Below are positions 12,662 through 34,487 of a stretch of 64,000 nucleotides of DNA, piece after piece. This DNA comes from Eledone cirrhosa (taxonomy: Eukaryota). How positions within the stretch are numbered: the stretch's first letter is position 1; each line of letters begins with the position of its first letter. Both the position numbers and the translations under genes were made by a program. The DNA lies in the NCBI GenBank assembly GCA_964016885.1, contig OZ024750.1, forward strand, positions 24,676,001 through 24,740,000, written 5' to 3'. The notes beneath the pieces were generated by a model. The model was not told where the DNA came from, made no database searches, and saw only the letters and a program-made list of their open reading frames with translations.

Positions 12662-12855
12662 AGCGAGGGAAAAGTGGTAAGGAACCAGGTGGACCATAAC
12701 GCACCAAAGTACTCAATACTTAGGGTAGTAGAGTGGGTAATAGGAGTAAGTAAGACCCCGACGGCTGAGCTCAAGCCGTTTCGACGGCTAATTCTGACTC
12801 AGAATTAGCCGTCGAAACGGCTTGAGCTCAGCCGTCGGGCTCTTACTTACTCCTA
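12662..12855. mobile_element. PLE family A mini-insertion (long arm -, short arm +)
   Basis: Matches the 3' end (60204-60342) of the Naiad-type element; palindrome centre ~12798; (TA)n flanks. Confidence 0.85.
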
Positions 12856-13169
12856 TATATATATATATATATATATATATATAATGCAATGAAATACCTA
12901 TGACCGTTGGTAAATCACTGATGAGGGACTCATTTTATAACATGTTATCCATGTGCAACCATGCAGTATTCTTCTTCCCATTTGTTCATATATATATATA
13001 TATATATATATATATATATATACACACACACACACACACTCATATATACTCTTTTACCTGTTTCAGCCAACCTACAAACTATACACTCCAGTAATATCAT
13101 GCATATGCCACCACCTCTCTATATACGTGGGTGTGCGTGTATTTTATGTGTATATACGAGTATATATGT

Positions 13170-13320
13170 GAAGGCGCATGGCTTAGTGGTTAAAGCTTAG
13201 TGGGCTTGCAATCTAAAGGTTGTGAGTTCAATTCTCGGACCGGCTGATGTGTTGTTTCCTTGAGCAAGACACTTTATTTCACGTTGCTCCAGTTTACTCA
13301 GCTGTAGAAATGAGTACCGG
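13170..13320 (+). mobile_element. tRNA-derived SINE, family B
   Basis: GAAGGCGCATGGCTTAGTGG...GAGTTCAATTCTC...TTGAGCAAGACAC. Confidence 0.8.
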
Positions 13321-13450
13321 CCTGCCCGCCCAGCCAGTGGGATGGCGTTGTCTTATGGCTAAAACAGCACGACGTGCTGTGACCAGCGGCGCCGATTGTC
13401 GCCCGACTGGCGCCCGACAGACTGGTCGGTCAAGGTGATCAAGGTGATAT

Positions 13451-13558
13451 AACCAGATGGACCATAACGCACCAGAGTACTCAATACTTAGGGTAGTAGA
13501 GTGGGTAATAGGAAAAAGTTTAAGCCCGACGGCAGAGCTCAAGCCGTTTCGACGGCTA
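13451..13558 (-). mobile_element. PLE family A 3' fragment, single arm
   Basis: Homology to 60224-60332. Confidence 0.8.
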
Positions 13559-14466
13559 TATATATATATATATATATATAGGGGACCTGTTTTCTACTGT
13601 AGAAATCTCCGTTTTACTCACAAATATGAGTTTAACCAGAAATGTACAGATTCACAGATTCATTTTAGTTGATATGTCTTTAGTGCTCCTTTACACTTAG
13701 TCTTCTTTGTTTTTAACTGAGAACATCCGAAATGTGTGTGTGTGTGTGTGTGTGTGTGTGTGTGTGAGTGTGTGTGTGTGTGAGTGTGTGTGTGTGTGTG
13801 TGTGTGTGTGTGTGTGTGTGTGTGTGTGTGTGTGTGTGTGTGTGTTAAGAGGTCCATTTCAGTATCATCAGGTCCCAGGTTCAATCTCACTGCGGACATC
13901 ATGGACATATGTATTATATTTCTCCATAGCGTCTGGTCAACTGGAGGCAATGGTGTGTGAAATATATGCTAGAAATGTATGCTATTTTGACTCCAGATGA
14001 ATAAGAGAGTAAAACTCCAAAGTTTTACTCTCCAGAGAATATCAATCCATATTCTTGAAAAACAAAAATAGTCTGCTTATCGATTATTTGTGAGAGTTAT
14101 ATAAGAAAATGTTCAACAATATAACCAAAATCTACAAACTATACACTCCAGTAATATCATGCATATGCCACCACCTCTCTATATATGTGGGTGTGCGTGT
14201 ATTTTATGTGTAGATACGAGTATATATGGGAAAACATATATATATATTTATATAAAGAGAGAGAATTACAAAAATATTTTTTTAAGAACACCATAATCCA
14301 GATGTGTGGGAATAACTGCCACAGGATCTACCAATTGGAATAATTCGTACGTTGAGTAAACACTGGTGTATGAGGTCCTTTATTCTTGTTGAACAATCAA
14401 ATTAAATGATTACACTAACGCAATTTATATATATATATATATATATATATATATATATATATATAT

Positions 14467-14680
14467 AGGAAAAAGTATGACCCCGACGGCAGAGCTCAAG
14501 CCGTTTCGACGGCTATTTCTGGACTTATGAGCAAACAACTGAGTCTGTCCAGAAATAGCCGTCGAAACGGCTCGAGCTCTGCCGTCGGGGTCATACTTTT
14601 TCCTAATTTCCCACTCTACTACCCTAAGTATTGAGTACTCTGGTGCGTTATGGTCCATCCTTACCACAATTCCTTTGTTA
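14467..14680. mobile_element. PLE family A mini-insertion (short arm -, long arm +) with ~20-nt foreign spacer
   Basis: Inverted arms around 14527-14548; (TA)n flanks. Confidence 0.85.
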
Positions 14681-14820
14681 TATATATATATATATATATA
14701 TATATATATATATATATATATATATATATATATATATATATATATATCCAGGAAGTGTAACGCGAAGTTACTGTAGGTTCACCCAGGTTGTCGATGTTTA
14801 GATTCACGTCTACATTGCTA

Positions 14821-14922
14821 CAGAAGAGGTCCGACGAGCTTTTTATTCCAGAGTCGGCCCAGATCGAACCTTGAGCTGATCAATAGCGAAACGCGCGTCA
14901 CCAATCAGTAAAGCCTCTTCCT
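14821..14922 (+). ncRNA. Hammerhead-like motif, U4C core, with family D stem II module
   Basis: GGU CCGACGA GCU...AGC GAAA CGCGCG UC ACC; upstream GAAGAGG can pair with downstream CCUCUUC. Confidence 0.6.
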
Positions 14923-15520
14923 GCTATTTCAAGCGTTAACCTAATATATTCCTTCCATATACCTTTTACACACACACACACACACACACACACATATATA
15001 TATATATATATATATATATATATATATATATATATATATATATATATATATATATATATACACATAGATAGATATATATATATATATATATACACATAGA
15101 TATATATATATATATATTGGTGAATTTGGCGAATATTCCGAAAGTGGAATCTATAGATCAGGCAGCCTCACGCCCGGATTATACATACTCTCGTATGACT
15201 GTAGGAAATGCTTGAAAGCCACTACATCTATTGAACTACCATCTGACTTCAATAAGTCTCATGACCAATGCAATGGCGACATGAGCAAACAACTGGGTCT
15301 GTAACAAATTTTGGTGTGAGAGATTACCCATCCTTTTCATGATTTGGAAAAAAAATGCCTTGCGTGATAATTTGTTTACATTCGTTTACATTCCGATGTC
15401 AAATCCTGTTTGATTGTCGGATGAGATACCTGGCGATATTTTCCTGTTTTCTATTTTTTTTATTTCTTTTCGCTTTGAGCTGAGATCAAAATATCAAAGT
15501 CCCGTCGTGAACTAGTTAGG

Positions 15521-32215: not shown

Positions 32216-32510
32216 TACCTACATACATACACACATACATACACACACATACATACATACATACGTACATACCTACATACATACCTACATATATACATAC
32301 ATACACACATACATACACACACATACATACATACATACGTAAATACCTACATACATACCTACATATATACATACATACACACATACATACACACACATAC
32401 ATACATACATACATACATACATACATACATACATACATACATACATACATACATACATACATACATACATACGTACATACCTACATACATACCTACATAT
32501 ATACATACAT

Positions 32511-33082
32511 GGTGGCTGTCAACTCGTTTTCGAGTACGGCCACTACTTTATATCCATGTAGGAGAACCCCTACCAATGCGCTGAACAAGTGTGACTTTTT
32601 AGTCCAGCCAGCGACTTGAAAACTCTGGTACAAACACTACACTTGTGACAATTATTGACACATAGTGCTGGGCCCATGGTACCATGTGACGACAAGTGCA
32701 GAGAGATCTCCAGATATAAAGCAATGCCTGTGCTGTGAAGCTTTTATAGTGAGCAAAGGCACTGCACAAAGCCAGTCCCACTCTCTTAACCAAGATGATA
32801 TTTACCAAAAAGAAGAACAATTCAACATCATTGGATACCATCAGGGTTGCAGGTGTTATATAAGAGCCTTCCTTCTCCTAGAATTCTGCCTTGACAAAGG
32901 CTAAGGGGTCATCTCTCCCGGTGATTTTGGATGGCTATTGACTCTTAAGAGCCCCTTTGCCTTTTGACAGGTTTTGTTTTTAGTCCTGCAGGATGTCCAA
33001 AGGCACCCTCCTCACCAAGAAACCTTGGTGGGGTTGCTAGTTTAGTCGCCAACGACCCGACCATGAGACAGGTTGTACTGGG
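32511..33082 (-). mobile_element. Non-coding retro-like repeat (possibly RTE-derived), longest copy
   Basis: Shared 3' end with (ATGT)n tail; GGAGAAGGAA(AA/GG)CTCT segment recalls RTE 5' UTRs (from memory, unverified). Confidence 0.65.
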
Positions 33083-33629
33083 ATACATATATACATACAT
33101 ACACACATACATACACACATAAAATATCATAGTTAATATGAAGTATTGTGAGATATGTAATAAATGACTAAGTTTCAGCAGGCCAGTACAATGGAGTAGA
33201 AATAAATAGAGGGTAAAGGATGACAAATAAGCAAAACAAAGTTGTTGTTTGTCCCAGTATATTGCTATCGTATTGTACTGGCTCTTTGAAACTTATCCGT
33301 CTATCTATCTATTTATCTTTTCCTGAGTCCTGTATTTTCGTTGCTCTGGTGATGCGGCTGGACTGCCGATTGCTATATTTGATTTGCTAAGCTGTCTAAA
33401 CGTATTGTTATTACTCTGGGGTACTTTTCCCCATCCGAGTGCTAAAGCTACAGACCGAATTTGCATTCATTAACTTGGCCGCGAACTAAAGCTTCGTTAA
33501 TGCTGTACTAAAATTTGTATTTATATATATATATATATATATATATATATATATATATATATATATATATATATATATATATATTTATGATATTAAATAA
33601 ATGGAAACTATATTTATAAAACCATATTT

Positions 33630-33694
33630 ATTTCGTTATATATATTTCAGGGATATCATATTAACAATATGTTATGCCTTCTTCAGACAAAATA
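33630..33694 (-). ncRNA. Type I hammerhead ribozyme (family C), inverted copy
   Basis: UAUUUUGU CUGAAGA AGG...CCU GAAA UAUAUAUA ACGAAAUA. Confidence 0.8.
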
Positions 33695-33834
33695 CAATAT
33701 AAACAGTCTTATAAATAAATAGATACGACATACCTTTCAATCACCTTGCATTTGGGAGGTTGATTTGGGAGGTTGATTTGCAAGGTGATTGAAAGGTATG
33801 TCGTATCTATTTATTTATAAGACTGTTTATATTG

Positions 33835-33900
33835 TATTTTGTCTGAAGAAGGCATAACATATTGTTAATATGATATCCCTGAAATATATATAATGAAATA
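33835..33900 (+). ncRNA. Type I hammerhead ribozyme (family C)
   Basis: CUGAAGA at 33843-33849, GAAA at 33881-33884, UAUAUAUA, stem I UAUUUUGU/AUGAAAUA. Confidence 0.8.
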
Positions 33901-34052
33901 AATATGGTTTTATAAATATAGTTTCCATTTATTTAATATCATAAATATACTCCAAATACTTGTTGAGTGCTTTTATATCAGTTATAAATATTTACTCGTT
34001 GTTAACCCAACAATTTAAATATAACTTTCCATGTATATATATATATATATAT

Positions 34053-34240
34053 AGGAAAAGAGTCAGGACCCCGACGGCTGAGCTCCGGCCGTTTCGACAG
34101 CTAGGTTCGGATCTAGCTGTCGAAACGGCCGGAGCTCAGCCGTCGGGGTCCTGACTCTTTTCCTATTACCCACTCTACTACCCTAAGTATTGAGTACTCT
34201 GGCGCATTATGGTCCACATGGTTTTTTACCACACTTTCTT
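34053..34240. mobile_element. PLE family A mini-insertion, divergent subfamily
   Basis: Both arms carry the same variants (GGCCGGAGCTCAGCC, TAGCTGTC). Confidence 0.85.
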
Positions 34241-34288
34241 TTATATATATATATATATATATATATATATATATATATATATATATAT

Positions 34289-34487
34289 AACGAAGGAAAT
34301 GTGGTAAGGAACCAGGTGGACCATAACGCACCAAAGTACTCAATACTTAGGGTAGTAGAGTGGGTAATAGGAACGAGTAGGACCCCGACGGCTGAGCTCA
34401 AGCCGTTTCGACGGCTAATTCTGGACTAGTCCAGAATTAGCCGTCGAAACGGTTTGAGCTCAGCCGTCGGGGTCCTACTCGTTCCTA
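34289..34487. mobile_element. PLE family A mini-insertion (long arm -, short arm +)
   Basis: Centre GGACTAGTCC at ~34423-34432. Confidence 0.85.

Follow-up and report, generated by a model that had tools for sequence, protein, structure and literature searches.

Penelope-like elements of the Hydra clade combine a C-terminal GIY-YIG endonuclease without a CCHH pattern, a CxCX5C linker, a hammerhead ribozyme near the 3' end and targeting of (TA)n (PMC8557442). Inverted pseudo-long terminal repeats (pLTRs) with a one-sided tail are known among such elements, and published accounts ascribe them to self-priming on an antisense template, for rotifer elements, or to endonuclease resolution (PMC3846280; PMC8557442); the origin of the inverted repeats and of the tail is named as an open task (PMC8557442). 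Here we describe a 64,000-nucleotide stretch of the Eledone cirrhosa genome (contig OZ024750.1, positions 24,676,001 to 24,740,000; hereafter the window, in whose coordinates positions are given) that contains six small palindromic insertions, or stubs, of a Hydra-clade 3' end, which we read with moderate confidence, from sequence comparison, as head-to-head insertions made by twin priming at two sites set by RNA hairpins.

Several described systems share part of this arrangement. Within the Hydra clade the likeness extends from the protein and ribozyme features (C-terminal GIY-YIG without CCHH, CxCX5C, CxxC, CxH, hammerhead, (TA)n) to Penelope-13_HM, listed with a 5'-truncated inverted copy, and to Hydra-2_Amil, whose consensus ends with the same bulged hairpin and tail (PMC8557442), whereas Hydra-1_Obim is a different family with another hammerhead and the window element has a U3-A8 core, a long stem II and a long 3' untranslated region. 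Published inverted pLTRs likewise show a head-to-head truncated copy, a palindromic junction and a tail on one arm (PMC3846280; PMC8557442), but with tails of 30-40 nucleotides (nt) against ~80-90 nt here, where the whole insertion measures 200 bp. In vitro work on PAc, a Poseidon element of Anolis, has already demonstrated that synthesis begins at two internal sites and that both strands are extended (Frangieh et al. 2024, PMC11167929): the two starts delimit the tail, both strands are cut and extended, the RNA is uncleaved, the target is AT-rich and a dimer is predicted. PAc differs, however, in belonging to another clade and in starting inside the open reading frame (ORF), in an AC-rich stem-loop without target homology, and the accessible text reports no pairing of one site with one target end (PMC11167929). 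In Schistosoma, dual minimal hammerheads form small inverted pairs with a U3-A8 core, lying on opposite strands 100-700 bp apart and derived from truncated elements, although neither end mapping nor a mechanism is given in the parts of that account available (Cervera and de la Pena 2014, PMC4209133). Retrozymes consist of tandem repeats, each with a complete type I hammerhead (10.64898/2026.07.22.740005); an identity as non-LTR retrozymes was rejected, the present copies being inverted and those of family A, described next, lacking the 5' half of the ribozyme core.

The closest mechanistic precedent comes from another kind of element. Twin priming in L1 is said to go back to Ostertag and Kazazian in 2001. 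The second L1 priming site varies in position, and overlap between the arms is generally absent, whereas here the second site is fixed, seems to be routinely used and often leaves overlapping arms. The likeness to L1 lies in two complementary DNAs (cDNAs) from one RNA, one on either target end, placed head to head with a 5' inversion (10.1101/2024.12.14.628481).

All six insertions of this family, family A, lie where a preliminary description of the window had placed them, each bounded by (TA)n runs, and all six consist of two head-to-head copies of the element 3' end with both 3' ends facing (TA)n. Insertion A1 (12663-12855) has its long arm on the left (to 12796), the short arm on the right and a 1-3 nt spacer at the centre; A2 (14466-14680) has the short arm left, a 22-nt spacer and the long arm right; A3 (19356-19560) runs in the same order around a 1-nt centre, its short arm being 2 nt longer at the 5' end; and in A4 (19857-20050), long left and short right, a 6-nt spacer is part of the short arm. 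A5 (34052-34243), from a divergent subfamily, has the short arm left, an 8-nt spacer and the long arm right, with arms identical over 53 columns, and A6 (34288-34487), long left and short right, is a perfect palindrome centred on TA. A single-armed family A copy, A7 (13451-13558, minus strand), has its stem II 5' end joined to (TA)n by TA and a non-canonical 3' end. A5 and A6 stand tail to tail across one (TA)24 run and form a second-order hairpin (34158-34375) that scores on microRNA (miRNA) models below their thresholds; a miRNA identity was rejected. Comparable tail-to-tail stacking of different families occurs in related loci (L012 2874-3007, L017 2271-2382, L074 2444).

Geometrically, the two ends are nearly constant. 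Counted with the terminal TA where present, the long arms of A1 to A6 end 97, 94, 99, 99, 99 and 99 nt after the hammerhead cleavage site and the short arms 19, 19, 19, 19, 21 and 19 nt after it, in line with the ~95-100 and ~18-20 nt given earlier. On a minus-strand parent copy (60205-62488, a 5'-truncated Hydra-clade element with its 3' end in (TA)n), the short arms end at 60282 in all six cases and the long arms at 60205-60208, an asymmetry of ~78 nt; we mark the short end, a putative internal start site, at 60282-60284 and the long or tail end at 60203-60208, both on the minus strand. The microhomology proposed at the ends was found as TA/TAT at the short end and TA at the arm ends. At their 5' ends the arms stop ~8-22 nt before GAAA (60332-60346), within stem II of the fold, as had been described, and the family A stubs are without the 5' half of the core. 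With 85-96% identity between the long arms and 60205-60345, the derivation from this 3' end holds but the source must be related subfamilies and not that very copy. A long arm is paired with a short one in 6/6 family A palindromes, for which independent choice of site would give a probability of at most 0.5^6 = 0.016, and the same pairing recurs in the family B palindrome at 11743 and the family C palindromes at 33584 and 890, where the preliminary description had also noted it.

Arms of the same locus differ at 1, 1, 2, 3, 0 and 1 of 53 columns in A1 to A6, against a mean of 7.8 mismatches of 53 columns between loci, and 2 of 720 arm pairings were as good as the real one. This bears out the earlier proposal of one template per locus, or else reflects later homogenisation; arm identity does not separate the mechanisms. 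All six junctions differ, again as proposed, whereas variants present in both arms and in no other copy, previously attributed to the insertions in general, were confined to A1, A4 and A5 (A3 and A6 were compared over part of their length). Two pairs belong to the same subfamily, A3/A6 and A2/A4, and because the A6 centre equals the A3 centre minus 5 nt, differing junctions alone do not prove independence; the earlier conclusion that the copies are independent events and not descendants of a master miniature inverted-repeat transposable element (MITE) thus keeps the support of the six differing centres but cannot stand on them alone. A few palindromic masters copied as units, their centres decaying later, would fit the interconvertibility of the A3/A6 and A2/A4 centres by small deletions and the terminal 150 bp that are 16- to >200-fold deeper than the rest of the element in sequencing run X1, and shared junctions could not be counted because perfect palindromes are poorly seen in contigs. 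Even so, we judge MITE-like amplification very unlikely, given that the same geometry appears in three families and in an ORF-bearing 2.2-kb copy, that non-palindromic two-arm forms make up a continuum with it, that the six different centres track different subfamilies, and that the joints seen in contigs are low in depth (11-138). Classification as MITEs was rejected on the ~78-nt asymmetry of the ends and the six differing centres.

Families B and C, putatively assigned to the Hydra clade by their hammerhead, (TA)n and common tail hairpin, with no linked ORF in the window, add copies in which the two arms do not fully overlap. The family B full palindrome (11743-11949) has a complete minimal hammerhead, its short arm on the left and its tail on the right, and a tail-only copy (17913-17992, minus strand) stops 7 nt past the short site. 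At 8822-8925, by contrast with a full palindrome, the arms share no overlap: one arm is inverted and extends from the short site into the core of the ribozyme, and directly next to it lies a tail piece that starts at the RNA position where the inverted arm also began, the tail end being replaced by (AC)n. At 60080-60154 a 61-nt short-site arm with full identity to family B meets, in the opposite orientation, the terminal 12 nt of the B tail (11/12 match), and a 10-mer of this copy has 4 near matches in the window, 3 of them in family B copies. Family C comprises a full palindrome with a complete hammerhead-like motif and its tail on the right (33580-34035), a two-arm copy in which the long arm ends 25-28 nt beyond the short site and the short arm reaches ~130 nt further 5' (29461-29742), and a palindrome (890-1719) with a short arm that extends further 5' by at least 60 nt and has been split by a later insert. 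That insert, of ~390 bp (1271-1662), ends in CTAG and lies in a TATATA stretch within the family C arm; it looks Helitron-like.

At 8822, 60080 and 29461 each arm carries sequence absent from the other, and neither can therefore be a fold-back copy of its partner unless part of the long arm was deleted afterwards in every case. The L1 geometry, with two cDNAs of one RNA adjacent and head to head, is present at 8822 and 29461 and partly at 60080, and these copies strengthen the earlier proposal that both target ends prime at two fixed internal sites. Of the informative window copies, 7/8 have a short arm that extends further 5' than the long one (A2, by resemblance only, A3, A4, 890, 29461, 8822 and 60080), with A1, A5, A6, 11743 and 33584 excluded as symmetric or undecidable. 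On the fold-back or self-priming account, a cDNA or antisense template folds at its 3' end and is copied into a hairpin, and this copy is then joined at the short site to the other end of the target. Such a step would explain why the arms share variants, why the 5' ends remain coupled even at 2.2 kb, and why the arms of a giant palindrome described below show no difference over 1512 bp and share alleles that are nearly absent from copies in runs X1, X2 and X4; stem II also yields self-complementary cDNA, and self-priming has been proposed from junction palindromes elsewhere (PMC3846280). We nonetheless consider it unlikely, since the spacer belongs to the short arm in A4, 890 and 29461, the arms at 8822 and 60080 share no sequence, and the loops would be of 0-1 nt: the centres of A1, A3 and A6, with 0-1 nt spacers, are too tight for self-priming. 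Possibly a short-site cDNA folds back and then joins a separately primed tail, a hybrid that evades these objections yet already requires two primings. Because fold-back cannot make barely overlapping arms unless a later deletion is assumed, twin priming is the mechanism indicated.

What appears to fix the two ends is a pair of small hairpins. Tail hairpin 1 (60250-60276, minus strand) is composed of ACTC, an inner stem, a UU bulge and GAGU, lies 5 nt 3' of the short end, and has counterparts just 3' of the short end in the tails of families A, B and C alike. The ACTC..GAGT pattern occurs in 7/9 tails picked by geometry, against a background of 4%, and in 10/14 over all tails; the exact tail pattern was absent from metagenome and viral contigs. 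Relatives were drawn from metagenome contigs (77 loci; best 80 of 413), and they use GCTC/GAGC, the strict ACTC/GAGT being present in 2/11 of their tails: the form GCTC..GAGCAC was found at 76 coding-strand sites in 41/77 related loci, and a looser pattern at 79 coding-strand and 10 opposite-strand sites, versus 0-13 per strand in shuffles. The 2-nt 3' bulge is UU in 30, UC in 17 and UA in 11 of 61 cases, and the inner stem covaries, with all four Watson-Crick types at the second pair and Watson-Crick inner pairs in 56, 40 and 28 of 61 versus 35, 16 and 15 when shuffled, as counted by anchoring on both stems (the MAFFT alignment left the left stem unregistered). Assuming other bulge sizes, inner pairing drops to 1-19 of 61, and G-U accounts for 5/45 and 6/34 of the paired cases.

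In the leaders of Hydra relatives, two such bulged hairpins lie between the hammerhead and the start codon in 20/25 cases, 43-83 nt apart (27 hairpins precede a long ORF, 25 of them with upstream room or a partner; two of the five without a partner are themselves hairpin 1 of a pair). The ends are positioned beside these hairpins. Copies at the 3' side leave their own leader before hairpin 2, usually at TA, and the long ends fall at -4 (L005), -3 (L012), -4 (L024) and -4/-8 (L048), that is, 3-8 nt before hairpin 2 in 4/5 cases, with L015 and L035 set aside for (TA)n within the leader and L014, L026, L042 and L065 running on or reaching the contig end. Relative to hairpin 1, the short ends are placed at 0 to -12 (families A, B and C of the window; L074 at -11). 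Both sites are internal, since the leader continues to ATG in L014, L041 and others. Published Hydra consensus ends, 25-148 nt past the hammerhead with 10/23 at 25-42, would fit both the short and the long ends but depend on curation and were not used as evidence. Two related loci show further arrangements: in L035 (1271-1330 and 3789-3851) the apparent start of the element lies immediately before hairpin 2 and its apparent end 33 nt past hairpin 1, and it appears to be one long-site-to-long-site unit, as from tandem or circular RNA, while L048 (704-960) holds an inverted tail-only arm, long-site primed and stopped in hairpin 1, joined to a copy that starts at the ribozyme 5' edge. From these positions we infer that each hairpin binds one element protein and places one start site.

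Mechanistically, twin priming would then proceed as follows. A single uncleaved RNA would serve as template for reverse transcription primed by the two 3' ends of a cut (TA)n; each would start at its own fixed internal site, a few bases 5' of a conserved bulged hairpin predicted to bind the element protein. The enzyme at hairpin 1 would copy from the short site into the ribozyme before falling off, which in family A would happen in stem II; its counterpart at hairpin 2 would copy the tail and either halt at the first cDNA, leaving non-overlapping arms, or displace that cDNA and stall near the same place, leaving a full palindrome. The two cDNA 3' ends would be joined via 0-5 nt of microhomology, and the tail would correspond to one hairpin-to-hairpin interval. 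More tentatively, and to our minds a little short of even odds, the process may be programmed, a protein pair on the two tandem hairpins holding both (TA)n break ends and initiating a cDNA immediately 5' of each hairpin. The hairpins might instead be read in DNA, with an intermediate resolved by the endonuclease at either site. In keeping with such cuts, the tail has been ascribed to endonuclease resolution (PMC8557442), the Drosophila enzyme depended on the tail for recognition, the anole enzyme favours ATT (PMC11167929), and ATT is found at the family A short site; yet anole genomic ends fall on the reverse transcriptase (RT) start sites (PMC11167929), the inner stem contains G-U pairs, and the 12-nt arm at 60143 is easier to understand as an aborted cDNA, which makes ends set by endonuclease cuts quite improbable.

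The template itself passes through a type I hammerhead-like motif (60298-60389, minus strand) with a U3-A8 core at 60379-60385, GAAA at 60321-60324, a long stem II and cleavage at 60302/60301; the U3-A8 variant has been reported in Schistosoma elements (PMC4209133). It was recognised by motif and by its fold as a three-way junction and lies below Rfam thresholds: Rfam gave no hammerhead match in the parent region and a weak one for family B (12.4 bits, E 2.8), a window-wide E-value listing named no hammerhead among the matches listed (150 of 363, mostly miRNA models), the one match at gathering level in the window was tRNA-like, and folding of whole 3' regions gave no improvement over shuffles (z 0.98 and -0.12). 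All arms cross the cleavage site, and the RNA template must therefore have been uncleaved, as for PAc in vitro (PMC11167929). Truncation in stem II is seen in 7/8 family A window copies, including A7, which makes stem II a truncation hotspot in that family, where it may act as the proposed strong stop for reverse transcription; the idea fails for families B and C, whose arms continue through the entire ribozyme and terminate at its 5' edge or beyond, so that the statement valid across families is that synthesis tends to finish within the ribozyme or close to it.

Evolutionarily, the parent is a Hydra-clade Penelope-like element, by endonuclease position, linker and motifs. The ORF remnant (61489-62499, minus strand) covers RT motif 7 and the thumb, a CxCX5C linker (CNCPDRSIC) plus, at the C-terminus, a GIY-YIG endonuclease with CNLC (CxxC) before a conserved E and CKH (CxH) after a conserved N; the core RT is absent from the window copy, and the assignment was made by motifs. 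The same order, with GIY-YIG after the RT thumb, is found in homologues of mostly ~700 aa and 36-47% identity (best 120 of 251 longer homologues), of which 110, 117 and 117 have CxCX5C, CxxC before E and CxH after N; RWK occurs in 63 and DKT in 97 of these 120, the window copy being truncated before both and before RT4, which is divergent in the Hydra clade. A Pfam search gave no informative name to the window protein or to three homologues, and no CCHH pattern was seen in the endonuclease alignment of the window protein. The call rests on the C-terminal GIY-YIG, the CxCX5C linker and the hammerhead, and the name Naiad, used in the preliminary description, had to be dropped for the same reasons and for the missing CCHH pattern: Naiads have an N-terminal endonuclease and no canonical hammerhead (PMC8557442), together with a CCHH motif in the endonuclease and a CX2-5CxxC finger, and the (TA)n targeting that does fit is common to Hydra.

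This parent is also the tail-bearing arm of a giant palindrome. Its mirror arm (62489-64000, plus strand) is 100% identical to the left arm over 1512 bp and exits at the window edge; the 5' ends of the arms are ~86-90 nt apart, with a 5-nt overlap at the junction, whose parent side was inferred from protein homologues. The arms share alleles (e.g. at 61072, 61237 and 61416) that are absent or nearly absent from the copies in runs X1, X2 and X4, and these private alleles may reflect a young insertion from a private source, homogenisation or an assembly artefact. An origin of the palindromes as a whole in assembly or library fold-back chimeras would draw on that 100% identity, which independent runs did not confirm; but the small palindromes have 0-3 arm mismatches and fixed ends, with matching ends and joints in three samples, so that the doubt is limited to the giant copy, which alone could be an artefact, and we give the general artefact hardly any credence.

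Independent runs (X1, X2, X4 and X24; three samples, two organism labels), one of which may stem from the source of the window itself, were mapped on 60205-62488, and the listing comprised 24 of 1480 rows of loose ends and 15 of 39 joints. Among the rows listed, the best-supported loose ends are those into (TA)n at 60208 and 60282 (89/77 contigs in X1, 78/72 in X2 and 2/3 in X4; 1247/3413 reads in X24), so that the fixed 3' ends proposed from the window recur. Between bins 60282-60358 and 60359-60435 depth falls 16-, 17-, 9- and 32-fold in X1, X2, X4 and X24; part of this drop at stem II may be subfamily divergence (loose ends at 60346), since some contigs continue via a different stem II. Eleven of the 15 joints listed change strand, and 7/11 land at 60332-60346 from 60248-60304. 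The joint 60288-60342 has a short side of 61 letters, exactly 60282-60342, which in a 150-nt read leaves too little room for a full long arm, and it has the same form as the non-overlapping two-arm copies in the window. Separately, the 3' stretch shares at least 20% of its 31-letter words with runs under ten organism labels.

A number of observations weigh against twin priming at hairpin-set sites. Position 60288 is also a subfamily divergence point, the X24 joint has one start, the from/to reading of strand-change joints is an interpretation, and depth is not doubled over the region shared by the arms (3.06e6 vs 2.70e6 in X1; 916 vs 408 in X4), so that full palindromes may make up a minority genome-wide or may go missing from libraries and contigs. 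Later loss of some long-arm sequence from what were once full palindromes could also account for the non-overlapping copies, and the giant palindrome is an exception, its tail-bearing arm being 86 nt longer if the mirror arm is the short one; its junction is not among the joints listed. As for the hairpins, several window tails were first spotted through the motif, the outer stem was fixed by the search pattern, and the related loci are not independent; L006 leaves its leader 27 nt before hairpin 2, L018 has one hairpin and its copy exits the leader just after it, the published Hydra-1_Obim leader start shows no such hairpin by eye, and hairpin 2 was not seen for family A, which has no leader in the window. 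The anole element, finally, primed without homology and used both sites on both strands (PMC11167929).

Elsewhere in the window, further stubs bounded by (TA)n, which have hammerhead-like cores, the tail hairpin or both, lie at 20359-20666, 3605-3830, 3250-3590, 21053-21211, 35568-35797 and 1777-1962, and several of them may be two-armed. Other small palindromes and a tandem pair, of unnamed families and mostly beside (TA)n, occupy 18733-18854, 35081-35160, 21314-21392, 20761-21020 and 16292-16591, and minisatellite-like tandem arrays 58690-59720, 24050-25140 and 15460-16030. The tRNA-like match (4996-5067, 33 bits) is probably the head of a short interspersed nuclear element. By its repeats, the host looks octopus-like.

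Set against the literature, inverted copies with a one-sided tail are known already, and the stubs are an extreme miniature of that arrangement; new are the non-overlapping copies and the twin hairpins, and a two-site hairpin rule was not found in print. Leader hairpins and miniature palindromes are not described in the accessible portions of PMC8557442, and a literature search that excluded subscription papers and Repbase notes found, in the texts it reached, neither twin priming nor leader hairpins for Penelope-like elements. Since the hairpin positions predict both ends, the mechanistic question is open to direct and cheap experiment, and the hairpin offers a practical means of locating where Hydra elements start and end. 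Programmed twin priming, if true, would explain the tail as hairpin spacing, its presence on one arm, the head-to-head copies and the coupled truncation, and would supply an RNA signal, minimal and portable, that directs insertion into microsatellites. In that case twin priming, which in L1 happens occasionally and by accident, would be the normal route here, and the stubs, at six in 64 kb, would supply the host genome densely with small palindromes.

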